Shown: piece after piece, positions 583 to 32,054 of the stretch
Numbering within the stretch: position 1 is the first letter of the stretch
Layout of the letters: every line of letters begins with the position of its first letter
Assembly: GCA_944329195.1 (NCBI GenBank)
Contig: CALVHX010000001.1
Coordinates: forward strand, 3,562-67,561
DNA length: 64,000 bases
Source: an uncultured Bacilli bacterium
GTDB lineage: Bacteria > Bacillota_I > Bacilli_A > RF39 > UBA660
Direction: 5' to 3'
Position numbers and translations under genes: made by a program
Notes under the pieces: model-generated
Seen by the model: the letters and a program-made list of their open reading frames with translations, nothing else
Told to the model about the DNA's origin: nothing
Databases searched by the model: none

Positions 583-585
583 TTT

Positions 586-640: not shown

Positions 641-695
641 GTTATTTTCAAAATTTAATAAAAGTGATATAATTAACTAGGAAATGAGGAATAAT

Positions 696-8614: not shown

Positions 8615-8628
8615 AATATTTCCCAGAT

Positions 8629-8644
8629 TATTTCCCGGGAAATA
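8629..8644. promoter_or_regulatory. NBS-like palindrome TATTTCCCGGGAAATA (copy 1), preceded by a direct half-site TATTTCCC at 8617-8624; 15 bp after the polC stop
   Basis: Exact 16-mer. CCCGGG is otherwise absent from this AT-rich window. Confidence 0.6.
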
Positions 8645-8723
8645 TTTTATTTAAATTAATTTATATTTATTTATGGAACAGTATACATATATTTAATTTA
8701 TCATAAATTAAGAAGGATAAAAT

Positions 8724-8739
8724 TATTTCCCGGGAAATA
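8724..8739. promoter_or_regulatory. NBS-like palindrome (copy 2), within the perfect 22-bp palindrome AATTATTTCCCGGGAAATAATT plus T5; about 100 bp upstream of polA
   Basis: Exact 16-mer TATTTCCCGGGAAATA. Confidence 0.6.
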
Positions 8740-8836
8740 ATTTTTATGATAAATAAAAAATAATTACGTGGTAAGATATGATAAATTGCTTTATTTTAAA
8801 TTTTTTGGTAAAATTGTCATAGAAAGACTTGGTGAT

Positions 8837-11422: not shown

Positions 11423-11429
11423 CAAAAAT

Positions 11430-11445
11430 TATTTCCCGGGAAATA
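11430..11445. promoter_or_regulatory. NBS-like palindrome (copy 3) with an adjacent duplicated right half-site GGGAAATA at 11450-11457; between polA and mutM
   Basis: Exact 16-mer, 8 bp after the polA stop and 38 bp before the mutM start. Confidence 0.6.
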
Positions 11446-11482
11446 ATTTGGGAAATAATTAATTAGAAGGAAGTGGATAATT

Positions 11483-12304: not shown

Positions 12305-12332
12305 TCATTTACAATAAATTTACATAACTTTT

Positions 12333-12365
12333 GTAACCTATTTGGTTACATTTTTCTTTTTTTGT
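12333..12365 (+). terminator. rho-independent terminator after mutM
   Basis: TGTAACC-tattt-GGTTACA hairpin followed by TTTTTCTTTTTTT. Confidence 0.55.
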
Positions 12366-12408
12366 TGACTTTAATAATATTGTGTGATAGGTTAAATTTG
12401 GTGATATA

Positions 12409-12819
12409 ATGAATGATGAATGCTTTAGAAAATCTCTCATCGAAATTACTGATAAAAATTTATTAAATAACTTTGTCAATGAAATTTTTGGTTATGATTT
12501 AAAAAATGATCAATACGTTTATATTCAATATAAGATTGTTCATGAAAACATTGTAATTAATATATATGATAATAGTTATAATAATAGATTTAAAGCTTTT
12601 ATTTTTACAACTAATAGTAATTTAGAAAGCAATGGAGATATTAAATATATTAATATTAATCATTGCTATAATTCTTATAAAAATAATGTAATTGATAGTA
12701 AATTGGACTTAATTGGTTCATTACTTATTTCAAAAAGTAATGATGAAAAAAAAGAGATTATTTCTAAGCTATTCGATAATGATATAAAAAATATTTTATT
12801 TAAATACTTTATTACTTAA
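12409..12819 (+). CDS. hypothetical protein (136 aa, Asn/Ile-rich, no recognisable domain)
   Basis: ORF only. Convergent with tmcAL and very AT-rich. Confidence 0.3.
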   Translation: MNDECFRKSLIEITDKNLLNNFVNEIFGYDLKNDQYVYIQYKIVHENIVINIYDNSYNNRFKAFIFTTNSNLESNGDIKYININHCYNSYKNNVIDSKLDLIGSLLISKSNDEKKEIISKLFDNDIKNILFKYFIT

Positions 12820-13959
12820 TTATTTATACCTTGTTATTATTGGTCTTTTTTCATATTCTCTTTTTATTAAATTAGAGTCTGTTTCTAAGGAATATATTTT
12901 TGTTGCTACAAGTTCTATATCTAGTATTTTAGATATATTTTTTTTATAACTTGTTATTATAGGGATAGTTATTTGTTTCTTTATTTTATTTAAATATTCT
13001 TGTCCTTTTTTGGAAAAGCCTAAGATCCGAAGATAATCTATATCTAACTGCCTAACTGACTCTTTAGTAAGACCAATGAGAATATGCAGAAGCATACGAG
13101 AAATTTTATTATAAGTATATCTTTTTGTCTTTACTTTCATTATTAAATCAGTGTAATTTTCTGCAAATTCTATATTTTTCAAAATTCGATTTTCTATTCC
13201 TTCGTCTACTGTCTGATATTTTCTAATCATCTTGTCTTCTAGTAATATTTTATATTTTAAATAAGGAAAATAATTATTCATTGCTACTTTATATAGGTAT
13301 TTTTCGGAATATGGTATTAGTTTGTCTATTTTTTTTCCATTTAAAAATCTTTTTCTAATAGCTGTAGCAGAGGCTATATTACCTTTAATTTTTGTACTAT
13401 GATAATTATTTGTTCTTGGAATATTTTTTATTTCTATTTTTTTATTTGAAAGCATTATTTGTTTTATGTAAGATAATGCTAAAAGATCATTTGGACTATC
13501 TATCCTTACTCCTATTAGATCTTCAATTGCTTTATTAGCCGCTGTTGGATAACTTATTCCTTTATTTAAATATTCTTTAAGTCTTTTATCATACTCTTTA
13601 TTATTTAACTGAAAAGTGGCAGCTTGTTTTATTTTTTCTATTGAAAGCGATTCTGTGCCGAATACTAATGTATCTATCTTTAGTTTTTCTAATATTGATA
13701 TTGCTCCTTTTGCAAATACATCAGATGATTGTACTGCATAGACAAAAGGGAGCTCTAAAACAATATCGATTCCGTTATCTAAAGCAATTTTTGTTTTATC
13801 CCACTTATTAAGAACTGAAATTTCCCCACGCTGTGTAAAAGAAGTTGCTAAAACTGCTATTATTATACTATCTTGATATATTTTTTTTATTTCGTTTATT
13901 TGATATAAATGTCCATTATGAAAAGGGTTATATTCCGCTACTAAACCTATTATGCGCAT
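12820..13959 (-). CDS. tmcAL: tRNA(Met) cytidine acetate ligase TmcAL (YlbM/UPF0348 nucleotidyltransferase)
   Basis: MRIIGLVAEYNPFHNGH (HxGH nucleotidyltransferase motif) and the YlbM-like body. GGTGA RBS before ATG 13959; the ORF extends to 14004. Confidence 0.65.
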   Translation of the reverse strand: MRIIGLVAEYNPFHNGHLYQINEIKKIYQDSIIIAVLATSFTQRGEISVLNKWDKTKIALDNGIDIVLELPFVYAVQSSDVFAKGAISILEKLKIDTLVFGTESLSIEKIKQAATFQLNNKEYDKRLKEYLNKGISYPTAANKAIEDLIGVRIDSPNDLLALSYIKQIMLSNKKIEIKNIPRTNNYHSTKIKGNIASATAIRKRFLNGKKIDKLIPYSEKYLYKVAMNNYFPYLKYKILLEDKMIRKYQTVDEGIENRILKNIEFAENYTDLIMKVKTKRYTYNKISRMLLHILIGLTKESVRQLDIDYLRILGFSKKGQEYLNKIKKQITIPIITSYKKNISKILDIELVATKIYSLETDSNLIKREYEKRPIITRYK

Positions 13960-14078
13960 ATTTATCACCAAATATATAATATCATAGTTGGCTTGATAAT
14001 GCAAAATTAATATTGCAGTTAAGCTGTTTCATATGATATAATATGCATATATTATTTGAAGTGAGGAAGTTATAAGTT

Positions 14079-15596
14079 ATGTTTAATTTTTTAAATATAT
14101 TTGAAGAAATTATTATTGATGTTGGAAAAGCATATCCTGATTGGAAAAATGTCTATAATATTATAGGTAATGTTATTACTATGATGCTTGCATACAAAAC
14201 TATTTATTGGATTATTGGCGTTTTTTTTACAAGAAAATTTAAACCTGCTAAAAATAAGCATACGTATGCTATTGTTATTCCAGCAAGAAATGAAAAAAAT
14301 GTTATTGGTAATCTTCTTGATAGCATTAAAAAACAGGACTATCCTAAAGAGTTACTTACTGTTTTTGTCATAGCGGATAACTGTACTGACAATACGGCAG
14401 AAATTGCTAGAAGTCATGGAGCTATTTGCTACGAAAGATTTGATGATGAACATAAGACTAAAGGGTTTGCTCTTCAATATTTATTTGAAAAGATCGAAGA
14501 AGATTATGGATGTATGTCATTTGAAGGGTACTTTGTATTTGATGCTGATAACTTATTAAAAAGTGATTATATTTCTCGAATGAATGATGCCTTCGATGCT
14601 GGTGAAAAAATAATTACTTCGTATAGAAATACTAAAAACTTTGATGAAAATTGGATTGCATCCACTTATGCTCTACATTGGATTAGATCTATTAGAAGTA
14701 ATCATAGAGCAAGATCAGTACTTAGACTTGCCACTAATATACAGGGAACTGGTTTTTTATTTACAAATGAAATTGTAAAAAATGGATGGAAATATACTTC
14801 GTTAACTGAAGATAGAGCCTTAACTGCGGACGCCGTGGCGCAAGGTTACAAGATTTCTTATCAGGATGCTGCTGAATTTTATGATGAACAGCCAACTAAT
14901 TTAAAAGTTGCTCTAAGACAACGTACTAGATGGTCAAAAGGTCATTTGATGGCTTTTGTCGAAACTGGTCCTTATTTATTATTAAATATATTCACTGGTA
15001 AATTATTTTTGAAAACTAGATGGAAAGAAAAAGAAGAAAAAAAACAAAAAAAGAGTTTTAAGGATATCGTACTTGCTATTATTGAATCTATAAGACACCG
15101 CTTTGCTTCTTTTGATACACTATTACAACTTACTCCTTTCTCGGTATTTAATTTGGCTAGATGGTTTATTGTGTGCGTTGTAATGTATGGTTGTTTTTGT
15201 TATAGTAATGGTATTGATAGTAGTAATTTGTTTGGTGGGGGAACTTATTTGGCAAAACTACTTAGAAGTTTATTTGAAATAAAAATATCTACTGTTCCCG
15301 GTATTAATGCTCTTTTTGTCGGTATGCTTGTATCTATATGGCTTAGAATTTTTTATAGAATTGGTATGTATATTCAAAATATGTGGATGGCTATATATTT
15401 ATTTATTATAGAAAGAAAAAGAATTAAAAAGATTCCTTTAAGAAAAAAAATTTTATATACTTTGACATGGCCGACATTTGATATTATTGGTAGATATACT
15501 ACATACGCGGCACTATTTATGAAGGTTACTTGGAAACCGATTCCTCACGATAGTAAAGTTACAATTGATGATATTAGCAAAGAAAAAAGTGAATAA
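14079..15596 (+). CDS. processive family-2 glycosyltransferase, membrane-bound (QxxRW motif)
   Basis: IVIPARNE, D-x-D FDADN and QRTRWSKGH motifs as in cellulose synthase/IcaA/NodC-type GT2. C-terminal transmembrane segments. Confidence 0.65.
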   Translation: MFNFLNIFEEIIIDVGKAYPDWKNVYNIIGNVITMMLAYKTIYWIIGVFFTRKFKPAKNKHTYAIVIPARNEKNVIGNLLDSIKKQDYPKELLTVFVIADNCTDNTAEIARSHGAICYERFDDEHKTKGFALQYLFEKIEEDYGCMSFEGYFVFDADNLLKSDYISRMNDAFDAGEKIITSYRNTKNFDENWIASTYALHWIRSIRSNHRARSVLRLATNIQGTGFLFTNEIVKNGWKYTSLTEDRALTADAVAQGYKISYQDAAEFYDEQPTNLKVALRQRTRWSKGHLMAFVETGPYLLLNIFTGKLFLKTRWKEKEEKKQKKSFKDIVLAIIESIRHRFASFDTLLQLTPFSVFNLARWFIVCVVMYGCFCYSNGIDSSNLFGGGTYLAKLLRSLFEIKISTVPGINALFVGMLVSIWLRIFYRIGMYIQNMWMAIYLFIIERKRIKKIPLRKKILYTLTWPTFDIIGRYTTYAALFMKVTWKPIPHDSKVTIDDISKEKSE

Positions 15597-15609
15597 AGTT
15601 ATTCGCTTT

Positions 15610-17565
15610 TTATATACTCTTATCATCTTTATTTTTTATTGTTTTAAAATAATTGTACTTCAGTGTTAAATCGTTTTTTCTTATAAGATAATTTATATAA
15701 TAATTTTTATCTTCGAGATTTATTTGATTAATATTTTTATTATTTGTAACTATTCCTCCATCGACATAAACATTTCCGTCATACCAAGAGTAATCACTAA
15801 AGAAGACAATACCTTGATAATTGTTATTTAGGGCATCAGCACCAATATAGTAATTCGGATGATATTCATTACCAAACAAATTTAATAATGTTGGTAAAAT
15901 ATTTAATTGTGATGTTACTTCTTTTACTGTTTTTTTATCAATATTGTTTTTCCATATGAAGAAAGGAGTTTTGTTTATTAAATTATTATTTGTCTCTTTA
16001 TATTTTTCTAAAATTGTTTGATCAGATAAAGTATACAAATAATGATCGGTAAACACCGCTATTACAGTGTTATCAAGAATACCTTCTTCTTCTAATTTTT
16101 TCAATAGTAATTCAATCATGTAGTCTGTTTCTTTAGCTTGTCTTCTAGCACAATCTTCTTCTGTCATAATAGGAAGTATAGTGTCTTCTGGTAACTCTTC
16201 AAGATTGTTTTCTTTTTTTATATCTTCTTCAACTAATATTTTACATACTCCTCTTTCAGTAGTAAACGGCATGTGAGCAGAATAAGTTATAATATAATTG
16301 ACAAATTTTTCTTCACTGAACATTTTTTCAGAAAATTCTTCATTAAGTATTAGTTCTCGGTCTAACGTATAACTTTCATCTGTATACGTTTCTAGATCTT
16401 GCAGTCCATAGTAATTGTCATATCCCCAATTTTTGTAGTTTGTTCCGCGCGAATAGTACTCACTAGTATTCATATGAAAAGCATTAACTGTATATCCTTC
16501 TTTTTTAAAAAGATGGGCCAAAGAATATGTAAATTCATTCTTGTTAAAAGAATATGCATTTTGTGTGTACGATAATGGTGTTATGAATCCTGTATTAACT
16601 GCAAATTCAGAATTAAATGTTGAACCGCCTCCATTATAATATGAATAATGATTGGAAAAATTAATAGAATTGTTCATCATGTTATACAGCGTTGGGGTAT
16701 CTTCTTCCGTTATAAGCCAATTATCTATTCCTTCTAACTGGATTATTATTAAATTATTATCTTTAAACATACCTGTATATTTATTTGAATAGTTTTCTTC
16801 TGTACTACTATATACTTCTTCTAAAAAAGTTAATTCTTCTTCGTTAACTGTTTTCTTTGACTTGATAAAAGTAATATAAAAATTTCTTACTGTATACTCA
16901 TATAGACCACTTATTCGCATACTTTTATTATTATCATTAAAATTTATATATATATTACGTGGATTTCTCCATGTGCTCCACGTTAATTCTGAATCCGGGC
17001 TTCCTAATAAAAATGGTATTATAAAATGAGCTATAAGAAATATAAAAAATACTCTTATTATATTTTTTAAATTAGTTTTCTTTCTTTTCGGAAAATATTT
17101 AATTCCTACTATAAAGGACATTATTATTATTAGTGAAGAAATATAAACCCATATATTACAATTTACAATGGCGTCAAATATATATTCTGAACCTTCACTT
17201 GTCATTAAAAGCAAGCTAAAATCAAAAAATGAATCAGTCATAGAATAATATATATTGTTTGTTAAAAAGAAAAGAAAGAAAAGAAAAAAGAAGAATATAT
17301 AGTAAATTTTTCCCTTTTTTTTCTCTGTAAATAAACATATTCCTAATATTAAAAAAACCCATACTAGAGTAAATAAATTAGGTACTAAACTTAATATGTG
17401 GAAAAAGTTTATTTTACTTCCTATTATCCTAGTAATAATATCCATTAATATAAATGGCAGTGCTACTAATAATATATAATAATATTTACCTAACAATTTT
17501 TTAATTGTGGAAATTATTTTCATATTTTTTACTTTTTTTACTACTTTTTTCAAGACAATCACCAT
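15610..17565 (-). CDS. ltaS: LtaS-family lipoteichoic acid synthase / sulfatase-domain membrane protein
   Basis: Five N-terminal TM helices, then an extracellular sulfatase domain (LEGIDNWLI, YNGGGSTFNSEFAVNTG). Confidence 0.7.
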   Translation of the reverse strand: MVIVLKKVVKKVKNMKIISTIKKLLGKYYYILLVALPFILMDIITRIIGSKINFFHILSLVPNLFTLVWVFLILGICLFTEKKKGKIYYIFFFFLFFLFFLTNNIYYSMTDSFFDFSLLLMTSEGSEYIFDAIVNCNIWVYISSLIIIMSFIVGIKYFPKRKKTNLKNIIRVFFIFLIAHFIIPFLLGSPDSELTWSTWRNPRNIYINFNDNNKSMRISGLYEYTVRNFYITFIKSKKTVNEEELTFLEEVYSSTEENYSNKYTGMFKDNNLIIIQLEGIDNWLITEEDTPTLYNMMNNSINFSNHYSYYNGGGSTFNSEFAVNTGFITPLSYTQNAYSFNKNEFTYSLAHLFKKEGYTVNAFHMNTSEYYSRGTNYKNWGYDNYYGLQDLETYTDESYTLDRELILNEEFSEKMFSEEKFVNYIITYSAHMPFTTERGVCKILVEEDIKKENNLEELPEDTILPIMTEEDCARRQAKETDYMIELLLKKLEEEGILDNTVIAVFTDHYLYTLSDQTILEKYKETNNNLINKTPFFIWKNNIDKKTVKEVTSQLNILPTLLNLFGNEYHPNYYIGADALNNNYQGIVFFSDYSWYDGNVYVDGGIVTNNKNINQINLEDKNYYINYLIRKNDLTLKYNYFKTIKNKDDKSI

Positions 17566-17755
17566 CTCCTCTTGATTATACTATATATTTATTTTTTTGT
17601 AAATAGACATATTTGATTGTGTAAACATGTGTTTTTAAAGGATAAAATAGATATCTTTTGTTTTGAATAAGCTTTGAGTAAAAGAAATATAAAAATTATT
17701 TATTTTTTACTAATTTTCTGATATAATTTATTTAGAATAGAAGGAAGGGGTATTT

Positions 17756-19516
17756 ATGTTTAAAGAAATACTTGCCATAACTAAAAATTATGCTATTGTT
17801 AAAATTGATGGTGTCGTCAGTGATGACTTACTTAATTTAAATGTTATTTTTGAAGAAACAAACAAAAAAATATTGGGGGAAATTGAAGAAATAATTAATA
17901 ACGAAGCTAAAATTAATTTTTTGGGAGAATTTCAAGGTAATAGATTTTATGATGGAATCATACGAAAACCTAGTGTATCCTCTTCTATTAGGATAATCAA
18001 TGCTGACGAATTAAAAGAACTTACTGGTAACAATGATCCTTATAGTATGATGCTTGGGCTTTCTCCTCTATATAATAATTCTCCAATAAAAATAAACATC
18101 GATGATATGTGGAGTAATCATAGTGCAATTTTTGGTAACACTGGGTCTGGTAAGACTTATGGTGTTGCTAGACTTGTACAAAATTTATTTACAATGTCTA
18201 ATTACATTCCTTTTAATAGCATAATCTTTATATTTAATAATACAGATGAATATGATAATGCTTTTAATTCTATTAGTAATTATAATTTAAATTTTAATTA
18301 TAAGTTATTTACTACTGATACTGAAAGTAGTAATAATTTACTTAAACTTCCTTTGTGGCTTCTATCTGTTGATGATTATGCTAATATTTTAGATGTTAGC
18401 GAGTATTCTCAAATTATGATTATTGAAAAAATGCTTGTCTATGTTTCTCTCTTTGCAAAGAACGATGAAGAAAGTAATAAATATAAAAATCATTTAATTG
18501 CTAAGGCAATTGTTTCTGTTTTGTATTCTAATCAAGTTTCTGCTAGGATAAGAGATCAAATTTTTTCTATTTTAACTGATTGTTATACGAAGGAATTAAA
18601 TTTAGATGTTGAAGTACCCGGTGTTGGGTATACAAGATCATTTAGAAAGTGTTTTGATATTGATAGCAAAGGTGAATTTGTCGAAAGGATTCTCATTACG
18701 GAATATATTAATAAATTTATTGACAATACTATCGAGTGGAAAGAAGAGTATACCCCTACTTATTTTACGATAGATGATTTAGAGATTGCACTTAATTTTA
18801 CGCTAATCTCTGAAGGTCTATTACTAAATGAAAAGTCATATAGTGAGGCTACTGCTTTAAAAGTTAAACTTCATACTATTGCTAATAGTTCGATGAGAAA
18901 ATTTTTTGAGGTTGAAAATTTTATTTCAATAAATGATTTTATATCAAGTTTAATTCTAATTGGCAATAATAAAAGGGCACAAATTATAAATTTTGTTCTT
19001 GAAAGTATTGATGATAGATTTGCTAAAAATTTAGTGAAGGTATATTCTAGGTTATTATTTAATTTTTTAAAAACTTTACCTACGAGAGGTAGTATGCCTA
19101 TTCACATTATGCTTGAAGAGGCACACAGATATGTACAAAAAGATAACGATATTAATATTCTAGGATATAATATTTTTGAAAGAATAGCTAAAGAGGGAAG
19201 AAAATTTGGTGTGGTTTTAGATTTAATTACTCAAAGACCAACCGAACTTTCTGAAACTGTTATATCACAATGTAGTAACTTTTTAATTTTTAAAATTAAC
19301 CATCCTAGTGATCTGGAGTATATTGAAAAAATGGTTCCTAACATTAGCAGTGATGTTATAGAAAAACAAAAGTCCCTACAATCTGGTACTTGTGTTGCTT
19401 TTGGTAGAATGATGAAAATACCAATGATTGTAAAAATGGAAATACCTAATCCTCCTCCACAAAGTTCTAATGCTAAAGTATTTGATAAGTGGATGATACA
19501 GTGGAAAAATAACTAA
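17756..19516 (+). CDS. HerA-like (DUF87/COG0433) FtsK-HerA superfamily ATPase, stand-alone
   Basis: N-terminal HAS-barrel-like region, Walker A GNTGSGKTY, Walker B IMLEEAHRY, and the ITQRPTEL sensor motif typical of HerA/VirB4/FtsK. Confidence 0.65.
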   Translation: MFKEILAITKNYAIVKIDGVVSDDLLNLNVIFEETNKKILGEIEEIINNEAKINFLGEFQGNRFYDGIIRKPSVSSSIRIINADELKELTGNNDPYSMMLGLSPLYNNSPIKINIDDMWSNHSAIFGNTGSGKTYGVARLVQNLFTMSNYIPFNSIIFIFNNTDEYDNAFNSISNYNLNFNYKLFTTDTESSNNLLKLPLWLLSVDDYANILDVSEYSQIMIIEKMLVYVSLFAKNDEESNKYKNHLIAKAIVSVLYSNQVSARIRDQIFSILTDCYTKELNLDVEVPGVGYTRSFRKCFDIDSKGEFVERILITEYINKFIDNTIEWKEEYTPTYFTIDDLEIALNFTLISEGLLLNEKSYSEATALKVKLHTIANSSMRKFFEVENFISINDFISSLILIGNNKRAQIINFVLESIDDRFAKNLVKVYSRLLFNFLKTLPTRGSMPIHIMLEEAHRYVQKDNDINILGYNIFERIAKEGRKFGVVLDLITQRPTELSETVISQCSNFLIFKINHPSDLEYIEKMVPNISSDVIEKQKSLQSGTCVAFGRMMKIPMIVKMEIPNPPPQSSNAKVFDKWMIQWKNN

Positions 19517-19552
19517 AGGAAAGGCTTATAAATAAAGTCTTGCCTTTTTTTT

Positions 19553-19669
19553 CGACAATATCAACAGGTCTGTTGAAAAAAATATAAACACTTGTTATTT
19601 AAAGTTATCAACATCATTGTTGATAACTTTAATATTTCCTTTAATTATATATGCTTATGTTGTTGATAA
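19553..19669. promoter_or_regulatory. oriC left DnaA-box cluster (TTATCAACA / ATATCAACA variants, including an inverted pair at 19605-19627) plus the dnaA promoter
   Basis: ATATCAACA at 19556-19564, TTATCAACA at 19605-19613, TGTTGATAA at 19619-19627, TGTTGATAA at 19661-19669. The TTGATT...TATAAT promoter follows. Confidence 0.7.
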
Positions 19670-19777
19670 ATTGTTTATATGTTGTTATTTTAATTGTTAT
19701 TAAAAAAATGACTAGACAAAATTGATTTTTGCGTTATAATAAATTTAAGTGAACTTTAAGACAAGGAGGTTTAGGTA

Positions 19778-21145
19778 ATGAACACAGAAATGTTATGGAA
19801 TAGTTTTTTAAGTAGAATAAAAGAACGAATCTCTCCTTTATCTTATGATACTTGGTTTAAAGATACTAAACTTTATAAAATTGAAAAAAATATAGCTATC
19901 ATTATCGTACCAATGATTCTTCATAAAAAACATTTGGAAGAAAACTATAAAGATGAAATAGAAGAAATTTTTAATTCTATTACAGGAACAAATTTTTCCT
20001 TTCAGTTTAAACTAGAAAACGAACTGACTGAAAACAATAATAAAGAAGATTTAAATGGTAATATAATTAATACGATTGGTGGAGTACCTTATCAAAGCAG
20101 TATAAGTGCTAATTTAAAAAGCGAATATACTTTTGATAACTTTATTGTCGGTGATTCTAATAGGTTTGCTTTTACAGCGGCGAGAGCAGTGGCAGAAAAA
20201 CCTGGAAAAGCTTATAATCCCTTATTTTTATATGGAAAAAGTGGTCTTGGTAAAACACATTTAATGCATTCTATTGGTAACTATATAATTGAAAATTCTA
20301 ATAAAAGAGTTTTATATGTTTCTAGCGAACAATTTGTAAATGACTACATTACTGCGGTAAGAAATAATGACAAATCTAATTTTGATAGGATTGATTCGTT
20401 TAAAAGTAAATATCGAAATATTGATGTGCTAATTATTGATGATATACAATTTTTAGGTACCGCTACTAAAGGACAAGAAGAATTTTTTCATACTTTTAAT
20501 CAACTACATGATTCTAATAAACAAATAATTATTGCTTCTGATAGATCTGTCGATGATTTAAAAATGCTTGAAGATAGATTAATTACGAGATTTAATTGGG
20601 GACTTACCGCAAATATTACACCTCCTGATTTTAATTTAAGAGTGAGTATTATTAAGAAAAAAATATCTCATCAAGAAGCAGCAGAAGATATTCCTTTGGA
20701 AGTTATCGAATATATTGCTAATATCAATGACTCTGATGTTAGACAGCTAGAGGGTGCTATTACTAGGGTTTTTGCTTATTCTCTAATGATGAATAAAGGA
20801 AAAGTTACTTTAGATGTAGCTGTTGAAGCATTAAAAGATAAAGTTAATGATAGGAGTGTTTATAAAAATGATGTTCATAGAATACAAAGAATTGTATGTG
20901 AATATTTCAAAATTGACATAGAAGATTTAAAGGGAAAGAAGAGGAGTAAAGATGTAAATTACCCAAGACAAATTGCTATTTATCTTTGTAGAATTATGAC
21001 TAATGAATCTTTTCCTAAGATGGGAACTTATTTTGGTGGCAGGGATCATTCAACTATTATAAGTGCATATCAAAAAATAGAAAAAGATCTAAAGATAAAT
21101 AGTCAGTTACAAACGGTAATAAAAGAACTCAAAAGTAAGATATAG
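19778..21145 (+). CDS. dnaA: chromosomal replication initiator DnaA
   Basis: AAA+ Walker A GKSGLGKTHL and the C-terminal DNA-binding domain (KDVNYPRQIAIYLCR...GGRDHSTI). Confidence 0.95.
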   Translation: MNTEMLWNSFLSRIKERISPLSYDTWFKDTKLYKIEKNIAIIIVPMILHKKHLEENYKDEIEEIFNSITGTNFSFQFKLENELTENNNKEDLNGNIINTIGGVPYQSSISANLKSEYTFDNFIVGDSNRFAFTAARAVAEKPGKAYNPLFLYGKSGLGKTHLMHSIGNYIIENSNKRVLYVSSEQFVNDYITAVRNNDKSNFDRIDSFKSKYRNIDVLIIDDIQFLGTATKGQEEFFHTFNQLHDSNKQIIIASDRSVDDLKMLEDRLITRFNWGLTANITPPDFNLRVSIIKKKISHQEAAEDIPLEVIEYIANINDSDVRQLEGAITRVFAYSLMMNKGKVTLDVAVEALKDKVNDRSVYKNDVHRIQRIVCEYFKIDIEDLKGKKRSKDVNYPRQIAIYLCRIMTNESFPKMGTYFGGRDHSTIISAYQKIEKDLKINSQLQTVIKELKSKI

Positions 21146-22385: not shown

Positions 22386-22549
22386 AAATTTAATTTATTA
22401 TTTTGTTTTTAACTATTAGCAATTTTTCTTGTTAATAGTTTTTATTTTTTTATATTTTTTTATATATTCGACAAAAAGAGACTTTTTTCGACATTTTTTT
22501 GTGTTTTAATATTTTCTACATATTTTTATATGTGGAAAGGGGGATTTTT

Positions 22550-23005
22550 ATGGATAATTACATTATTAATGAAAATACTTTATGTTTTACTCAAGATATT
22601 GATAATACTGATGAAATTCTTGTGATAGAGAAGAAAAGAAAATTTAATATTAAAATGAAATGTCTTAAGTTTATCAACAAAAGCTGTTGTTGTTATGGTC
22701 ACTCGTATAATGTACAAAGACAAATTATTATTGATAATTTTAATTTTTATATTAAAACTCCTATAGTTGTATCTGAGTATAACATGTTTATTTTCTTTCC
22801 TACATCTTCTCCAAGTTCAAATGAATGTATTTGGATTTCTTATAATAATGTTGATAGGTATGTTAAGGAAGATAATTATACTAAAATTTATTTTAAGGGT
22901 GGAAAGATTTTAAATATTAGTGCTAAATATACTACGATTGATAGTCAAATAACAAAATGTATTAAGATAGAACGTTATTTAAATAATTTAAAGGTAAAAA
23001 GGTAG
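22550..23005 (+). CDS. comK: ComK-family competence transcription factor-like protein
   Basis: MFIFFPTSSPSSNECIWISYNNV aligns with B. subtilis ComK IFLFPTLSSTRPQCGWISHVHV, with similar overall length and upstream cysteines. RBS GGAAAGGGGGA before ATG 22550. Confidence 0.55.
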   Translation: MDNYIINENTLCFTQDIDNTDEILVIEKKRKFNIKMKCLKFINKSCCCYGHSYNVQRQIIIDNFNFYIKTPIVVSEYNMFIFFPTSSPSSNECIWISYNNVDRYVKEDNYTKIYFKGGKILNISAKYTTIDSQITKCIKIERYLNNLKVKR

Positions 23006-23116: not shown

Positions 23117-24208
23117 ATGAAAATTAAAAATATTAGATTAAAAAATTATCGTAATTATGATAATTTAAATATTTCTTTTTGCGATAATTTAAATATTATA
23201 ATTGGAGATAATGCTCAAGGTAAGACTAATCTTCTGGAAGCAATTTATGTACTTGCTGTTACTAAATCTTTTTTATCGATTAACGACCACAATTTAATAA
23301 AATTTGGTAATAAATGTTCTTTTATTGAAGGATTAATCGAAAAGAAAAATTCAACTCTAGATTTGGAAATATTACTCAATGATAATGGAAAATTTGTTAA
23401 AATTAACCATAAAGAAATTAAAAAATTAAGTGAGTATATTTCGAAGATGAACGTTATTATTTTTAGTGCTGATTCTATTAGAATGCTTAAAGAAAGTCCC
23501 TCTACTAGGAGAAAATATTTTAATATTCAAATAAGTCAGATAAATAAAAGATACTTAAAAATGTTAACGGATTATAATATTATTTTAAGGCAGAGAAATG
23601 AATTCTTAAAAATTATTGATATGAATAAAAAAACTGATACTGACTATTTAGAAATAATTAATGACAAATATGTTGATTTATCGCTTAAAATATATAATTT
23701 TAGAGATGAATATGTTAAAAATATTAATAGTTATTTAGGAAATATGTTTTTTTCTATTACTGGTTTTGATGGACTTAAATTAAAGTATATTTCTAATATT
23801 GATAATAGTAGAGATAATTTATTAGAGAAGTTAAATAAAAATATAAATAAAGAAATTCAGTATAAAATGACTTTAATTGGTCCTAATAGAGATGATTTTT
23901 GTTTTTATTTGAATGATAAAAATTTATCTCTATATGGTTCTCAGGGTCAGATGAGAAGTGCGATAATTGCTCTTAAAATGTCTGAAGTATTCTTATTTAC
24001 TGATAAAGTTGGGGATAGTCCAATACTTCTATTAGATGATATGTTTAGTGAATTAGATATTAATAAAAGAAATAATATACTTGCTAATTTAACTCATGAT
24101 GTACAAACTATAATAACAACTACTGATATAGATAATATTAATGAGAATATTAGAAAAAAAGCAAATGTTTATGAAATAAAAGATGGAAAATTATTTCCCG
24201 GGAAATAA
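23117..24208 (+). CDS. recF: DNA replication and repair protein RecF
   Basis: Walker A GDNAQGKTNLLEA, SMC-like signature and LLLDDMFSELD Walker B. The last codons and stop (KLFPGK*) are supplied by NBS palindrome copy 4. Confidence 0.85.
   Translation: MKIKNIRLKNYRNYDNLNISFCDNLNIIIGDNAQGKTNLLEAIYVLAVTKSFLSINDHNLIKFGNKCSFIEGLIEKKNSTLDLEILLNDNGKFVKINHKEIKKLSEYISKMNVIIFSADSIRMLKESPSTRRKYFNIQISQINKRYLKMLTDYNIILRQRNEFLKIIDMNKKTDTDYLEIINDKYVDLSLKIYNFRDEYVKNINSYLGNMFFSITGFDGLKLKYISNIDNSRDNLLEKLNKNINKEIQYKMTLIGPNRDDFCFYLNDKNLSLYGSQGQMRSAIIALKMSEVFLFTDKVGDSPILLLDDMFSELDINKRNNILANLTHDVQTIITTTDIDNINENIRKKANVYEIKDGKLFPGK
24192..24207. promoter_or_regulatory. NBS-like palindrome (copy 4), overlapping the recF stop codon; 26 bp upstream of gyrB
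   Basis: Exact TATTTCCCGGGAAATA within AATTATTTCCCGGGAAATAATT. Confidence 0.6.
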
Positions 24209-26162: not shown

Positions 26163-28694
26163 ATGGAAGAAGAATTAGAGTTTGAAAGAGATAGAAAAGT
26201 ACCTGTTAATATAGTTGGAGAGATGAGGAAGTCTTTTCTTGATTATTCGATGAGTGTTATTGTTGCTAGAGCTTTACCAGATGTTAGGGATGGTCTTAAG
26301 CCTGTTCATAGAAGAATTTTATATACCCTGTATGAAGAGGGCATGACTCCTGATAAAAAATATCAGAAAAGTGCTAATGCTGTTGGTGCAGTAATGGGTC
26401 ATTATCATCCACATGGGGATGCCGCTATTTATGATTCAATGGTACGCATGGCACAGGATTTTACTTATAGGCACGTTCTTGTTGATGGGCATGGTAATTT
26501 CGGTTCTATCGATGGGGATGGACCTGCTGCAAGTCGTTATACGGAAGCAAGACTTGCTAAAGTATCTATGGAACTTTTAAGGGATCTGAATAAGGATACT
26601 GTTGATTTTTCAGATAATTATGATGGGCAAAGAAAAGAACCTTCAGTACTTCCAAGTAGATTTCCTAATATATTAGTTAATGGTAATATGGGAATTGCCG
26701 TTGGTATGGCCACTAATATACCACCACATAATTTAGGTGAAGTAATAGATGGCTGTATTGCTTATATAGAAAATCATGATATTAGTGTTACTGATTTAAT
26801 GCAATATGTTAAAGGACCTGATTTTCCTACAGCTGGAGTAATTCTTGGCAATAGCGGTATAAAAAAAGCTTATGAAACGGGTCGTGGTTCTATTACTATT
26901 AGAGGAATGGCTAAAGTTGAAGAACACCATGGTAAAGAAAGAATTGTTATTACAGAAATTCCTTATCAGATTAATAAGAAAGCTTTGATTACCCGAATTG
27001 GTGAACTTGTCAGAGATAAAATTATCGATGGCATTTCTAATTTGAGCGATGAATCGGCTTTGGAAGGTATTAAGATTGTTATTGATGTTAAGAAGGAAGC
27101 TAATGCTAATGTTGTCTTGAATAATCTATACAAGCATACGCCACTTCAAACATCTTATGGTATAAATTTTTTAATGCTTGTTGATGGTAGTCCTAGAACT
27201 TTGGGATTAAAAGCTATATTTGAAAAGTATGTTGAACATCAGAAACATGTTATTTATCGAAGATGTCAATTTGATTTAAAGAGATATAAGGATAGATTAC
27301 ATATATTAGATGGTTTGAAGATTGCTTTAGATAATATTGATAGGGTTATTAAAATTATTAGAGAATCTCAGGACGATGAAGAAGCTAAAGTCGGTTTAAT
27401 AACTAATTTTGGTCTAACTGATGTACAAGCACAAGCAATACTTGATATGAGACTTAAGCGTTTAACAGGTTTGGAAAAATCAAAGATAGAAGAGGAAATT
27501 GATGAACTTGAAAAACTGGTGAAAGAATTAGAGGAAATATTGGGAAGTGAAGATCGTATTCTTGGTGTTATAAAGAAGGAAATGCTTGAGATTAAAGAAA
27601 AATATGCAGATGAAAGAAGAACCCACATTGATATGACCGCTATTGATTATATTGAGGATGAATCTTTAATTCCTATGCAAAATGTTGTTATAACTCTTAC
27701 TAATAATGGATATATTAAAAGATTGACGACGGATACTTATAAGACTCAAAATAGAGGTGGTATGGGTGTTAAAGGAATGGCCACTAATGAAGAGGATTTT
27801 GTGGAACATTTAATTAATGCAACTTCTCATGATTATATTTTGATGTTTACTAATAAGGGTAAAGTTTATAGAATTAAAGGTTATGAGATTCCTGAATTTA
27901 ATAGACAATCAAAGGGGTTGCCAATTATTAATTTGTTAAATTTAGAAAAAGGCGAAAAGGTTAATTCTTTGCTTAAGGTATCAAAAGATGATAACTATAA
28001 ATACTTAATATTTGCTACAAAGAGTGGTCTAATTAAAAGAACTGATATATCTGAATTTGATAGTATTAGGAATAATGGTAAGAAATTTATTACTTTGAAA
28101 GATGATGATGAAATTGTTTCTGTCAAAAAGACTACTGGCAATGATGAGATTTTAATGGCTTCATCGAATGGTAGGATGGTAAGATTTAATGAAAGTACTG
28201 TTAGAGTAATGGGTAGAAGCGCTTCTGGTGTTAGGGGTATTAATATAGGTGAAGGTGTATTAGTTGGTATGGAAGTAGCATCTAATAACGGACTTATTTT
28301 AGTTGTTACTGAAAAGGGATATGGCAAAAAGACTCCTATACAAGAGTATAGAATTACAAATAGAGGTGGAAAAGGGGTTAAAACTGTTAATATTACTGAA
28401 AAAAATGGTGCTATTGTTGCCTTTAAAACTGTTGATAATGATAAAGATGTTATGATTATTACTGATTCGGGTATTATTATTAGACTTGATGCTAATCAAA
28501 TTTCTACTATGAGTAGAGTTACTCAGGGTGTTAAACTTATTAATCTTAAAGAGCATAGTGTTGTTAGTTCTGTTTCTGTTGTTGAGAAAGAAGAAACGGA
28601 TATTTCTGAAGATGATGCGATTGTTGATAATAATATCGAAGACACAGAAAGTATTTCAATAGGAGATGATTCAGTCAAAGAAAGTGATACTTAA
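26163..28694 (+). CDS. gyrA: DNA gyrase subunit A
   Basis: Active-site region AAMRYTE-like (ASRYTEARL), QRDR HPHGDAAIYDSM, and C-terminal beta-pinwheel repeats. Confidence 0.95.
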   Translation: MEEELEFERDRKVPVNIVGEMRKSFLDYSMSVIVARALPDVRDGLKPVHRRILYTLYEEGMTPDKKYQKSANAVGAVMGHYHPHGDAAIYDSMVRMAQDFTYRHVLVDGHGNFGSIDGDGPAASRYTEARLAKVSMELLRDLNKDTVDFSDNYDGQRKEPSVLPSRFPNILVNGNMGIAVGMATNIPPHNLGEVIDGCIAYIENHDISVTDLMQYVKGPDFPTAGVILGNSGIKKAYETGRGSITIRGMAKVEEHHGKERIVITEIPYQINKKALITRIGELVRDKIIDGISNLSDESALEGIKIVIDVKKEANANVVLNNLYKHTPLQTSYGINFLMLVDGSPRTLGLKAIFEKYVEHQKHVIYRRCQFDLKRYKDRLHILDGLKIALDNIDRVIKIIRESQDDEEAKVGLITNFGLTDVQAQAILDMRLKRLTGLEKSKIEEEIDELEKLVKELEEILGSEDRILGVIKKEMLEIKEKYADERRTHIDMTAIDYIEDESLIPMQNVVITLTNNGYIKRLTTDTYKTQNRGGMGVKGMATNEEDFVEHLINATSHDYILMFTNKGKVYRIKGYEIPEFNRQSKGLPIINLLNLEKGEKVNSLLKVSKDDNYKYLIFATKSGLIKRTDISEFDSIRNNGKKFITLKDDDEIVSVKKTTGNDEILMASSNGRMVRFNESTVRVMGRSASGVRGINIGEGVLVGMEVASNNGLILVVTEKGYGKKTPIQEYRITNRGGKGVKTVNITEKNGAIVAFKTVDNDKDVMIITDSGIIIRLDANQISTMSRVTQGVKLINLKEHSVVSSVSVVEKEETDISEDDAIVDNNIEDTESISIGDDSVKESDT

Positions 28695-28753: not shown

Positions 28754-28769
28754 TATTTCCCGGGAAATA
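28754..28769. promoter_or_regulatory. NBS-like palindrome (copy 5), 60 bp after the gyrA stop
   Basis: Exact 16-mer within AATTATTTCCCGGGAAATAATT. Confidence 0.6.
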
Positions 28770-28836
28770 ATTAGTAAACAAATGTTCGCTATTGCTAAAA
28801 TTCTTGAAATATATGTTAAAACATGTTATTATACTG

Positions 28837-28919
28837 TTGATACAACATTAATTAGTGGAACCAAGTCAGGATCGGAAGATAGCAGCTTTAACACTTTATT
28901 AATGTGTGTATCTTTTTTT
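28837..28919 (+). ncRNA. ffs: signal recognition particle RNA (small 4.5S/scr type)
   Basis: AAGUCAGGAUCGGAAGAUAGCAGC matches the SRP domain IV consensus AGGUCAGGUCCGGAAGGAAGCAGC. The 5' and 3' arms are complementary (GATACAACATTAATTAGTG / CACTTTATTAATGTGTGTATC). Promoter TTGAAA(28804)-17-TATTAT(28827), T7 run at the 3' end. Confidence 0.6.
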
Positions 28920-28965: not shown

Positions 28966-28981
28966 TGTTTCACGTGGAACA
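28966..28981. promoter_or_regulatory. parS-like site 1 (TGTTTCACGTGGAACA)
   Basis: One mismatch from the ParB/Spo0J consensus. Confidence 0.65.
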
Positions 28982-29075
28982 TAAAAATATATAGTGTTGT
29001 GGGAATTAATTTTAATTATAAAATTTAAAATTTGAAACAAATTATTTTATTAATATTTAAATAGATAACGTCTAA

Positions 29076-29091
29076 TGTTCCACGTGAAACA
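29076..29091. promoter_or_regulatory. parS-like site 2 (TGTTCCACGTGAAACA)
   Basis: Identical to the B. subtilis parS consensus. Confidence 0.7.
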
Positions 29092-29188
29092 TGTCTTTTA
29101 AAATTAAAATTGGGTGATTATAAAAATATAATCAGTTTAGAAAAAGTAGTTTAAAAATAGATTTTATTATTTGCGTATAATCAATTCA

Positions 29189-29204
29189 TGTTTCACGTGG
29201 AACA
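29189..29204. promoter_or_regulatory. parS-like site 3 (TGTTTCACGTGGAACA), start of duplicated unit 1
   Basis: Followed by the DnaA-box-like TTATCAACA at 29208-29216. Confidence 0.65.
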
Positions 29205-29389
29205 TATTATTTATCAACAGTTTAACATATCTTTTAATGGAAAGTGTTTTAAAAAAATATCAAGATAAAAGTATATCAAAATTTTAATTTATTTTTTTCT
29301 TAATGTATAACTTTAAATTTTTAAATAGTTTATGTTATTTAACTTGAAATTTATAATAAATAAGATTTATTTAAATTTAGATAAATACA

Positions 29390-29405
29390 TGTTCCACGTG
29401 GAACA
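29390..29405. promoter_or_regulatory. parS-like site 4 (TGTTCCACGTGGAACA), centre of the perfect 22-bp palindrome ACATGTTCCACGTGGAACATGT
   Basis: Perfect palindrome, two symmetric changes from the consensus. Confidence 0.65.
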
Positions 29406-29482
29406 TGTATTTATAACTATTGTATTAAAAAAATACTTAATATGTGTATGTTTGAATATTTACTTATAATTAATTAGTTTAA

Positions 29483-29498
29483 TGTTTCACGTGGAACA
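29483..29498. promoter_or_regulatory. parS-like site 5 (duplicate of site 3)
   Basis: Start of tandem unit 2. Confidence 0.65.
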
Positions 29499-29683
29499 TA
29501 TTATTTATCAACAGTTTAACATATCTTTTAATGGAAAGTGTTTTAAAAAAATATCAAGATAAAAGCATATTAAAATTTTAATTTATTTTATTCTTAATGT
29601 ATAAGTTTAAATTTTTAAATAGTTTATATTATTTAACTTGAAATTTATAATAAATAAGATTTATTTAAATTCAGATAAATACA

Positions 29684-29699
29684 TGTTCCACGTGGAACA
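29684..29699. promoter_or_regulatory. parS-like site 6 (duplicate of site 4)
   Basis: Within tandem unit 2. Confidence 0.65.
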
Positions 29700-29772
29700 T
29701 GTATTTTTAACTGTATTAAAAAGAATTTAATATGTGTATGTTTGAATATTTACTTATAATTAATTAGTTTAA

Positions 29773-29788
29773 TGTTTCACGTGAAACA
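29773..29788. promoter_or_regulatory. parS site 7 (TGTTTCACGTGAAACA, exact consensus)
   Basis: Exact 16-bp palindrome. Confidence 0.7.
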
Positions 29789-29875
29789 TTAATAATATTA
29801 ACAGTAATCAGTCATTTATTGATATATTAGTATAATTATATTGTTGTAAATAGGTATTTTATATGGTAATATGTT

Positions 29876-29891
29876 TATGTTTCACGTGAAA
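29876..29891. promoter_or_regulatory. parS site 8 (exact consensus), immediately upstream of and overlapping the tadA 5' region and RBS
   Basis: Exact 16-bp palindrome ending 4 nt before the GGAG RBS of tadA. Confidence 0.7.
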
Positions 29892-29909
29892 CATGGAGTT
29901 TGTGATAAT

Positions 29910-30338
29910 ATGATTGATAATGATAGAATGTTGATGGCATTAGAACAAGCAAAAAAAGCATATGAATTGGATGAAATACCTGTTGGTTGTGTTATTTTTA
30001 GAAAAAATGAGTTGGTGAGTTGTGGATTTAATAGAAAAGAGAGCAAATGTAATTCTGTTATGCATGCTGAAATGATTGCTATTAACGCTGCTTGTGAAAA
30101 GCTTGGACGTTGGAGGCTTGACGACTGTTGTTTATATGTGACTTTAAAACCTTGTATGATGTGTATGGGTGCTATAATTGAAAGTAGAATTAAAAAAGTG
30201 TATTATGGAACTGAAAATAATGTCGAACAAATGTACGATATAAGTAAAATTTCAAAGTTTGTTAATCTTTATAATCTTGAAAATAACGATTGTTCTAAAA
30301 TATTGTCAGATTTTTTTAAAAACAAAAGAAAAAAGTGA
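29910..30338 (+). CDS. tadA: tRNA-specific adenosine deaminase TadA
   Basis: CDA zinc motifs HAEMIAI and PCMMCMGAI. The ORF is open from ATG 29871, which lies inside parS site 8, but GGAG precedes ATG 29910. Confidence 0.8.
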   Translation: MIDNDRMLMALEQAKKAYELDEIPVGCVIFRKNELVSCGFNRKESKCNSVMHAEMIAINAACEKLGRWRLDDCCLYVTLKPCMMCMGAIIESRIKKVYYGTENNVEQMYDISKISKFVNLYNLENNDCSKILSDFFKNKRKK

Positions 30339-30383: not shown

Positions 30384-32054
30384 ATGGTGAGTTATTTAGC
30401 TTTGTATAGAAAATATAGGCCGAATAATTTTGATGATGTAAGTGGTCAAGAAAAAGTAGTAGCTGTTATTAAAAATGCGATTGTTAATAATAAAGTTTCT
30501 CATGCATATTTATTTAGTGGACCTAGGGGAACTGGTAAGACTACTATTGCTAAAATATTGGCTCGACTTGTTAATTGTGAAAATTTATCTTCAGATGGCA
30601 AACCTTGTGGAAAATGTTATAGTTGTGTTAATTATTTTAATAGTAACGATATTGTTGAAATTGATGCAGCTTCTAATAATGGTGTTGATGAAATTAGAGA
30701 ACTTAGGGATAAGATTAATTTAGTGCCAAGTAATTCTAAATATAAGGTATACATAATTGATGAGGTACACATGCTTACAACGCAAGCTTTTAATGCTTTG
30801 TTAAAAACTTTAGAAGAACCTCCATCTCACATTATATTTATTTTAGCTACTACTGATCCGCAAAAGGTTCCTTTGACTATATCTTCTAGATGTCAAAAAT
30901 TTCAGTTTTCTAAATTGGATGTTACGAAGATTGTTGAGAGATTAGAACAAATTGTCAATTCTGAAAATATTGATATTGAAAATGACGCACTGTTCGAAAT
31001 TGCAAGACTAGCGGAAGGTGGCATGCGAGATGCTATCAATATATTAGACCAGCTAGTTGCTTATAAAAACGATAAAATTACCTTGGAAGATGTTTATTTA
31101 GTTAATGGCTCGATTTCATATGATGATGTTTTAAAGTTGATGAATGCTATTAGATTAAATGATAAAATTGAAATAATTAAATTTATTGATTTTTTTGATA
31201 ATAGTGGTAAAGAGGTCAATAAATTTGTTCAAGAATTAATTGTTTTTTTAAAAGATGTTATTTTGTATAAAAATACTGGCATTTTGACTGGTATTGAAGT
31301 TAAAAATAGTTGTGTTAAATCCGTTGCTGATCTATATGATGATATTATTTTATATAATTTTATAGAAGATTTGAATGAGACTAGCAATAGAATAAAATTT
31401 TCTTCTCATTCTTCGATAATTTTTATGACAGCAGTTCTAAAATTTTCAAATAATTATTTTTGTGAGGGTACTGAAAATATTTCCCGGGAAATAATTAAAA
31501 AGAGTTTTGATAATAAAAAAGAGCAAAATAAAAAAGAACAACTAAAAGAAAATATTTCCCGGGAAATAATTAAGGCCAATGAAGCTTCTTCTATGTCCGA
31601 CAAAGAAATAAAAGTAAGAATAAATAATTCGCTTGCCTTAGCTTCTAAATCTTTTTTGCAAGAATTAAAGAGTAATTGGAATAGAATAGATGATTATATT
31701 TATGATGATAGTTTTTCTGTGGTGAGTGGTCTGCTTAAGGATTCTGTGCCTGTTGTTGGATCTTCTACTAATTTAATTATTGTCAATAGGCTTGATTCTG
31801 TTGTTAATAGAATTAATGAAAATATATTGTTGATAGAAAAGTTGTTGAAAAAAATATTTAATTATAATATGCAAGTTGTTGCCATTGATGAGGATACTTG
31901 GTGTGAGGAAAAAAATAAATATATTATTAATTTAAAAAAGGGAATTAAGTATGAAATTATTGATTCTAAAGAAAAAAATACCGAGAGAAAGGTAAAAAAT
32001 TCTGTTGATGAACTTATTGGTTTGATTGGTGAAAGTGTTATTGAGTATAAATAA
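30384..32054 (+). CDS. dnaX: DNA polymerase III subunit gamma/tau
   Basis: RYRPNNFDDVSGQ, GPRGTGKTT, zinc module CGKCYSC, DEVHML. Carries two in-frame NBS palindromes that encode ENISREIIK twice. ATG 30384 follows an AGGAGG RBS. Confidence 0.85.
   Translation: MVSYLALYRKYRPNNFDDVSGQEKVVAVIKNAIVNNKVSHAYLFSGPRGTGKTTIAKILARLVNCENLSSDGKPCGKCYSCVNYFNSNDIVEIDAASNNGVDEIRELRDKINLVPSNSKYKVYIIDEVHMLTTQAFNALLKTLEEPPSHIIFILATTDPQKVPLTISSRCQKFQFSKLDVTKIVERLEQIVNSENIDIENDALFEIARLAEGGMRDAINILDQLVAYKNDKITLEDVYLVNGSISYDDVLKLMNAIRLNDKIEIIKFIDFFDNSGKEVNKFVQELIVFLKDVILYKNTGILTGIEVKNSCVKSVADLYDDIILYNFIEDLNETSNRIKFSSHSSIIFMTAVLKFSNNYFCEGTENISREIIKKSFDNKKEQNKKEQLKENISREIIKANEASSMSDKEIKVRINNSLALASKSFLQELKSNWNRIDDYIYDDSFSVVSGLLKDSVPVVGSSTNLIIVNRLDSVVNRINENILLIEKLLKKIFNYNMQVVAIDEDTWCEEKNKYIINLKKGIKYEIIDSKEKNTERKVKNSVDELIGLIGESVIEYK
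31478..31493. promoter_or_regulatory. NBS-like palindrome (copy 6) inside the dnaX coding sequence, in frame
   Basis: Exact 16-mer, part of the 26-bp direct repeat GAAAATATTTCCCGGGAAATAATTAA. Confidence 0.6.
31553..31568. promoter_or_regulatory. NBS-like palindrome (copy 7) inside the dnaX coding sequence, in frame, 75 bp after copy 6
   Basis: Exact 16-mer. Second copy of the 26-bp direct repeat. Confidence 0.6.

Follow-up and report, generated by a model that had tools for sequence, protein, structure and literature searches.

Our analysis of this locus concerns eight palindromes of the ParB/Spo0J-binding type, parS, that are crowded into less than one kilobase of DNA in the vicinity of the dnaA gene. 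In the 64-kb stretch of DNA that we studied (referred to as the window throughout), eight exact copies of TGTTNCACGTGNAACA, the 16-bp palindrome by which parS sites of chromosomal ParABS systems are recognized, start at positions 28966, 29076, 29189, 29390, 29483, 29684, 29773 and 29878, and 100 shuffles yielded none. The dense array put forward in the original prediction is thereby borne out, with the small amendment that its last site ends at position 29893 and not at 29891. The array spans 0.93 kb (28966-29893), corresponding to 8.6 parS sites per kb, and the start-to-start spacings of its sites are 110, 113, 201, 93, 201, 89 and 105 bp.

The individual sites, none of which is assigned to a strand, fall into three sequence forms. 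As had been anticipated, two of them carry the exact consensus TGTTTCACGTGAAACA, namely site 7 (29773..29788) and site 8 (29878..29893). A single site had been assigned to the variant known from Bacillus subtilis, but there are in fact four: site 2 (29076..29091) reads TGTTCCACGTGAAACA, and sites 1 (28966..28981), 3 (29189..29204) and 5 (29483..29498) present the same sequence on the other strand as TGTTTCACGTGGAACA. Sites 4 (29390..29405) and 6 (29684..29699) consist of the perfect palindrome TGTTCCACGTGGAACA. All eight are flanked by an A on the left and a T on the right, so that the element is actually an 18-bp palindrome of the form A-TGTT..AACA-T. Around four of the sites the symmetry reaches still further, with a 34-bp near-palindrome enclosing site 1, a perfect 34-bp palindrome centered on site 4, one of 30 bp centered on site 6, and one of 24 bp at site 7.

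The gene order surrounding the array, as established by Pfam, is dnaA (19778-21145), dnaN, comK, recF, gyrB, gyrA (26163-28694), ffs, array, tadA, dnaX, ybaB, recR and holB, and spoVT, metG, spoIID, spoIIID and mreB are found further downstream in the window. The window has a G+C content of 27%, and its host is a spore-forming, low-GC Firmicute of the gut that belongs to the Bacilli in the broad sense. The ComK-family gene (22499-23005) is positioned between dnaN and recF, where it interrupts the canonical dnaA-dnaN-recF-gyrB-gyrA block, and is present in all strain contigs. Rfam and Pfam together corroborate the predicted placement of the array between the gene for the small SRP RNA, ffs (28836..28918, + strand; RF00169, 54.8 bits), as its left boundary and tadA (29910..30338, + strand), encoding a tRNA adenosine deaminase of 142 amino acids, as its right boundary. 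The first site lies 7.8 kb downstream of the 3' end of dnaA, in agreement with the distance of about 8 kb given before. The most likely start of tadA is the ATG at position 29910, ahead of which a GGAG motif is found at 29895; the resulting 142-aa product was also the choice of the gene callers on six other contigs. With this predicted start codon, site 8 would be part of the tadA leader and lie outside the coding sequence. The array itself harbors no credible open reading frame, as the short ones present are frame artefacts running through the palindromes, and neither Rfam families nor terminators were found inside it.

Outside the array, the 64-kb window contains no further parS site, even when three mismatches to TGTTTCACGTGAAACA are tolerated (0.27 expected), and none was found in approximately 14 kb of flanking DNA from the same species. 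Within the approximately 78 kb of readable sequence, the palindrome is consequently confined to the gyrA-tadA gap; this is not the picture of a generic repeat scattered over the chromosome, an outcome that would have spoken against the original prediction.

Part of the array consists of two adjacent units, unit A of about 294 bp (29185..29482, + strand) and unit B of about 290 bp (29479..29772, + strand), that share a mean column identity of 97% and differ by one 4-nt indel, a deletion in unit B. Unit A contains parS sites 3 and 4, unit B contains sites 5 and 6, and each of them carries one copy of the DnaA-box variant TTATCAACA. Our alignment hence agrees with the predicted tandem duplication in its length, identity and content. 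Tandem Repeats Finder (TRF) reported no tandem repeat in the array, as there are only two long copies. BLAST searches with the unit spacers recovered no further copies in the window or in the loci of related species among the matches listed, and the 294-bp unit is accordingly not a mobile element. What we cannot uphold is the view that the unit was recently amplified. All seven strain-level sequences contain the duplication, the copy number of the unit does not vary among them, and polymorphisms are common to both units in a patchwork that is indicative of gene conversion between the repeats; in one strain (L001), units A and B are nearly identical, the region of the indel included. Judged from these alignments, the duplication is fixed in the species and is being homogenized by gene conversion, and it is not evidently recent.

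Among ENA assemblies, 18 contigs encode the TadA protein, and one of these contigs is 1.675 Mb in length (ERZ21549425, s255.ctg000336l). All six strain loci that we retrieved possess eight parS sites with essentially unchanged spacing. When seven strain sequences are aligned, all 112 columns of the parS cores are invariant, and the three variable parS columns are restricted to the degenerate positions 5 and 12. Position 12 of site 5, for instance, is either G or A, and in strain L003 both sides of site 4 are altered from CC..GG to TC..GA, by which the site becomes TGTTTCACGTGAAACA and its palindromic nature is kept. The spacers contain 36 variable columns, 35 of which fall inside the two 294-bp units. 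This distribution indicates that the target of selection is the 14-base core of each site and not the spacers.

Two differences in length set individual strain contigs apart. The 1.675-Mb contig (L004) carries a 1.8-kb insertion (L004:7065-8866) at a position equivalent to window ~28776-28802, between a Noc-binding site and the promoter of the SRP RNA gene; about 27 bp of target sequence are found on both of its sides, and its 444-aa product, probably an IS transposase, shows weak matches to HTH and integrase-core (rve) domains. An additional stretch of about 1.9 kb (L129:6605-8371 versus window ~60515-60601) is present in some strains and missing from the window. It is located upstream of ychF, between a gene for an ABG-family transporter and a 465-aa gene whose match to the LPXTG anchor is weak and below threshold, and it comprises two open reading frames of 383 and 108 amino acids without a clear family match.

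A scan of one genome per species with a pattern of three parS sites separated by gaps of 70-100 nt matched at least 120 loci. Among them are at least 30 related species, with GyrA proteins 59-78% identical to that of the window, that possess a parS array in the slot it occupies in the window, gyrA-[array]-tadA-dnaX-ybaB-recR. The arrays of the 30 relatives among the matches listed contain between 3 and 15 exact parS sites each, 194 in total, and the base at position -1 is an A in 193 and that at position +1 a T in 191 of these 194 sites. The closest relative among the matches listed (L100) has 14 sites with segmental repeats of its own, and other arrays among these matches are strikingly regular, with 15 sites at 36 bp (L031), 11 sites at 53 bp (L061) and 10 sites at 55 bp (L016). 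We rejected the periodicities of approximately 105, 53 and 36 bp in the relatives' arrays as evidence for a preferred spacing, since the search pattern itself demanded gaps of 70-100 nt and thereby selected for them. A common slot combined with a common core and unrelated spacers implies that the location is old and conserved and that the core is under selection, and the invariance of this core within the species is in keeping with sites that are maintained. Site number and spacing turn over fast through the tandem duplication of multi-site segments.

As a separate observation, parS sites tend to be embedded in longer, site-specific palindromes, both in the window (28966-29893) and in the other arrays (L007-L126). 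In the 194 sites of the relatives among the matches listed, the frequency of complementary bases at flank pairs 2-6 is 40-56% versus 32-35% at control positions, and a similar trend is seen in unrelated phyla among the matches listed. The flanks vary from site to site but match each other at any one site, a pattern suggestive of mutations that perfect the palindrome or of a preference for a symmetric DNA shape, and not of base-specific contacts.

These comparisons bear directly on the idea that the array is a generic repeated palindrome, of the REP or MITE kind, or a relic left behind after ParB was lost. Such an origin could account for the duplication of the 294-bp unit and for the lack of a parB gene in the approximately 78 kb read. 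It is nevertheless highly improbable, as the palindrome does not occur beyond the gap in these approximately 78 kb, as only a core of 16-18 bp is common to the different species with entirely unrelated spacers around it, and as this core is invariant in strains whose spacers vary, when a relic would decay. They also weigh on the possibility that the sites serve as operators from which ParB, or another reader of CACGTG palindromes, represses either tadA-dnaX or the SRP RNA gene. A gap of 16 nt separates the end of site 8 from the likely tadA start codon, the site abuts the ribosome-binding site, with the GGAG motif following after 1 nt, and ParB is known to silence genes adjacent to parS in some species (PMC7022226). 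Yet the remaining seven of the eight sites are distant from any start codon, promoter-like sites are not in excess within the array (16 versus 16.4 expected), and the loss of Spo0J left the expression of genes neighboring parS unchanged in B. subtilis (PMC7022226). Moreover, the SRP RNA gene follows the array in most of the relatives listed, is contained within it in two of them (L112 and L113), and precedes it in the window, so that no fixed promoter geometry is conserved. We therefore regard a primary role of the sites as operators as improbable.

The array had been described as lying next to oriC. Upstream of dnaA we found three copies of TTATCAACA and one of the box variant ATATCAACA, and the region between dnaA and dnaN contains two copies of ATATCAACA, one of TTTTCCACA and an AT-rich TAT(AAT)5 run. 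The boxes flanking dnaA together with the AT-rich run look like a Firmicute oriC. However, neither the GC skew nor the gene orientation switches at dnaA: the skew is positive and the genes are on the + strand over at least the 24 kb preceding dnaA and onward to the end of the window. The DnaA boxes hence speak for the proposed neighborhood and the missing change in polarity speaks against it, and a position next to oriC is, given that no polarity switch is visible, only likely. The array is origin-proximal in so far as it is found 7.8 kb from dnaA in the dnaA-dnaN-recF-gyrB-gyrA block, yet without a skew switch at dnaA. Throughout window positions 1-19700 and the upstream flank (L127/L253), the GC skew is positive and nearly all genes, among them ackA, nrnA, sigA, sufCDSU, polC, polA and fpg, are on the + strand; the usual rpmH-rnpA-yidC-jag-mnmEG-rsmG-noc-soj-spo0J block is absent from the upstream side of dnaA. 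Either oriC lies elsewhere than at dnaA, or a rearrangement has affected the left flank. Independent short-read assemblies end upstream of ackA (L127:1-134, L253:1-147, L255:1-99), and this common break suggests a repeat at that position, possibly an rRNA operon.

The DnaA-box-like element in the repeat units deserves separate consideration. TTATCAACA occurs 11 times as an exact copy in the window versus 1.85 expected. Four exact copies and one near-copy cluster at the array within 1.1 kb (28430, 28622, 28939, 29211 and 29505): two on the + strand, at 29211..29219 and 29505..29513, each follow 6 nt after parS sites 3 and 5, respectively, and two on the - strand, at 28430..28438 and 28622..28630, contribute to the local box cluster from within the 3' end of gyrA. 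The element noted before is thus this organism's enriched box variant and does cluster at the array, whereas the binding of DnaA to it is a prediction. In six relatives among the matches listed (L048, L034, L097, L013, L070 and L055), the arrays contain composite repeat units of a parS site and a DnaA box: a copy of TGTTGATAA or TGTGGATAA, with one mismatch at most, stands 0-8 nt beyond 23 of their 40 parS sites and exclusively on the side facing tadA, compared with a background rate of about 1% per site. The boxes of these relatives are often followed by GTTGTT. No exact box stands beside any of the 557 parS sites of unrelated taxa among the matches listed.

These data raise the possibility of a dual role, in which the array would load ParB and would at the same time, as a cluster of DnaA boxes, bind or titrate the initiator and so couple the control of initiation to the centromere. 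The enrichment of TTATCAACA, its three copies in the dnaA promoter region, the box cluster at the array and the composite units of the six relatives would all fit such a function, and a genetic interaction of spo0J with clusters of DnaA boxes has been described in B. subtilis (PMC3245932). Against it stand the presence of a parS-adjacent box in the window in the two duplicated units only, which amounts to a single independent event, its orientation opposite to that in the six relatives, and the lack of boxes beside parS in the other 24 relatives among the matches listed, L100 included. In addition, boxes with one mismatch number 36 in the window versus 25.8 expected, which is little above chance. 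On balance, a dual role is a tentative and rather doubtful proposal for the window.

If the array loads ParB, the genome should encode a member of this protein family. Neither parB nor noc, parA or smc was found in the window and its flanks of about 4 kb on the left and about 10 kb on the right, approximately 78 kb in total; Pfam searches of all sizeable open reading frames of the window gave no ParB match, and a tblastn search of the window and its same-species flanks, with Spo0J of B. subtilis as the query, gave no match at E<=10. For the extension of the flanks we relied on SufC, NifU, SufS and YchF, and on the left every short-read contig terminates 100-150 bp ahead of ackA. Spo0J as a database query retrieved an overwhelming number of Bacillus sequences and no parB gene of this species. 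A DNA pattern for GERR...ENLQR with AT-biased codons led to noc/parB loci of AT-rich Bacilli-like organisms in metagenomes, and a profile search started from the N-terminal domains of these Noc proteins yielded at least 120 near-equal clusters, none of those listed being on the species' 1.675-Mb contig. It should be kept in mind that some relatives among the Mollicutes (Mycoplasmataceae) lack par genes altogether (PMC7022226).

The clade of Noc-like proteins reached by these searches is very abundant in public assemblies of metagenomes and sequencing runs (at least 120 clusters at 364-392 bits). Three metagenome loci (L152, L187 and L205) encode Noc-like proteins of 514 amino acids, whose N-terminal 200 residues are conserved and 78-82% identical to those of shorter Noc-like proteins; a long low-complexity linker rich in Asn, Gln and Ser follows, and the last ~30 residues are conserved again.

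The window contains seven exact copies of the Noc-binding 16-mer TATTTCCCGGGAAATA versus 0.02 expected (8629-8644, 8724-8739, 11430-11445, 24192-24207, 28754-28769, 31478-31493 and 31553-31568), of which the one at 28754..28769, assigned to no strand, is found directly upstream of the SRP RNA promoter. All of them are enclosed by longer AT-rich palindromes that follow the pattern AAAATTATTTCCCGGGAAATAATTT; dnaX contains two of the copies, and the 3' end of recF contains another. Their density in the window is one per 9 kb. B. subtilis has about 70 Noc-binding sites in 4.2 Mb, and by that measure the density in the window would be much higher. Many of the related loci among the matches listed possess Noc-binding 16-mers close to their parS arrays as well. 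Noc is a paralogue of ParB, and the seven copies of TATTTCCCGGGAAATA consequently suggest that proteins of the ParB/Noc family are encoded in this genome. The conservation of parS across strains and species would be hard to explain without a protein that reads it, and from these considerations we infer the existence of a ParB protein in this organism.

A tandem array of 43-bp iterons constitutes the sopC centromere of the F plasmid, and the compactness of the window array had led to the suggestion of an unusual, plasmid-type centromere. The two are alike in that many palindromes for binding a ParB-family protein are collected in a short non-coding array. Unlike sopC, however, the window array is irregularly spaced, lacks a uniform iteron, is chromosomal and follows the chromosomal parS consensus. 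We rejected an iteron centromere of the sopC type on account of this irregular spacing, the blank TRF result, the chromosomal location, which includes the 1.675-Mb contig, and the absence of an adjacent par operon. Nor is compactness as such exceptional: most bacteria possess one or a few closely placed parS sites, and the scattered sites of B. subtilis represent the exception (PMC8357415), making the earlier contrast with this bacterium one with an atypical comparator. In our scan, with its at least 120 dense arrays from many phyla, at least 25 loci besides this species have eight or more parS sites within 1 kb, at least 21 of them from unrelated taxa that include Planctomycetota, Acidobacteriota, Bdellovibrionota, Patescibacteria, Actinomycetota and Lachnospiraceae, some being cultured isolates. 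Of the 120 matches listed, 44 carry a ParB gene inside the 8-kb locus.

B. subtilis and the host of the window have much in common, as both are spore-forming Firmicutes with Noc-binding sites that use the same parS consensus, and four of the eight window sites correspond to the optimal sequence TGTTCCACGTGAAACA of B. subtilis. They differ in that B. subtilis has 10 sites, eight of them in the ori domain, spread over ~0.75 Mb, whereas the detectable sites of the window all belong to one array. High numbers of parS sites, all in the ori domain, are found in Myxococcus xanthus (22), Streptomyces coelicolor (21) and Corynebacterium glutamicum (10) (PMC7022226). The 22 sites of M. xanthus form a 3-kb cluster 4 kb upstream of parA (PMC3899335), and like the window array, this cluster assembles many consensus-type 16-bp sites in one origin-proximal stretch, at ~7 per kb compared with 8.6 here. 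It is bound by the chromosomal ParB protein. It adjoins the parAB operon, whereas the window array is located in the non-coding DNA between gyrA/ffs and tadA, and parB is absent from at least the 24 kb on its left and the 44 kb on its right. Clustered origin-proximal sites have likewise been described in C. glutamicum (10), Caulobacter crescentus (5), Streptococcus pneumoniae (4) and Pseudomonas aeruginosa (4 near oriC), where they are nucleation sites for ParB and, in the first three of these species, also loading sites for SMC (PMC7022226; PMC8357415). These clusters span ~5-40 kb with sites kilobases apart, whereas those of the window are separated by 89-201 bp within 0.93 kb. Tight clusters being common across bacteria, the compact array, very probably a genuine centromere, adds a further example to a known type.

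The exact match to the consensus, the restriction of the sites to one gap, their conservation among strains and the occupation of the same slot in at least 30 relatives lend themselves to a straightforward interpretation: the eight parS sites in the gyrA-ffs-tadA gap, ~8 kb from dnaA, very probably constitute the chromosomal centromere of this bacterium. The strong ParB-nucleation zone foreseen for this region is likewise well supported by genomic comparison, with its eight sites kept in seven of seven strains and its slot occupied in at least 30 related species. Mechanistically, CTP-bound ParB dimers would load at each 16-bp palindrome, close to form clamps, and slide outward, so that eight loading sites within 930 bp would act as one high-flux nucleation point. 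A single partition complex would then form across gyrA, tadA and dnaX and recruit SMC-ScpAB, as well as ParA/Soj if the genome encodes one, and these would in turn organize and segregate the origin region. Over evolutionary time, as the sequence comparisons show, the array grows and shrinks by tandem duplication of multi-site segments, and gene conversion keeps the copies alike. In vitro, DNA condensation by ParB scales with the number of parS sites, having been observed with 7, 13 and 26 copies and not with 1-4 (PMC8299390), and it has been argued that SMC complexes, which could collide when loaded far apart, are kept from doing so by tight clustering (PMC8357415).

A more far-reaching proposal is that, in a large lineage of uncultured gut Bacilli, the centromere is a stand-alone, fast-evolving array fixed in the gyrA-ffs-tadA gap and far from parAB. 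In part of the lineage, each parS site would be fused to a DnaA box in fixed orientation, yielding composite ParB/DnaA units that couple initiator binding to the segregation complex, and the copies of TTATCAACA beside parS sites 3 and 5 of the window would represent a variant of this arrangement. Taken as a whole, we consider this proposal unlikely.

The array would mark the centromere and probably the point of SMC loading, and is as such useful for modeling the chromosome organization of uncultured gut Bacilli. Sub-kilobase arrays of 8-15 consensus parS sites are widespread across many phyla among the matches listed, and a comparable density is described, in those parts of the literature covered here, for M. 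xanthus alone. Such natural arrays provide a test of why parS sites cluster, be it for the loading flux of ParB, the avoidance of SMC collisions or robustness. Both the lineage-wide conservation of the slot and the units that combine parS with a DnaA box may merit follow-up; if functional, the composite repeats of the six relatives would constitute a direct link, at the level of the DNA, between the initiation of replication and chromosome segregation.
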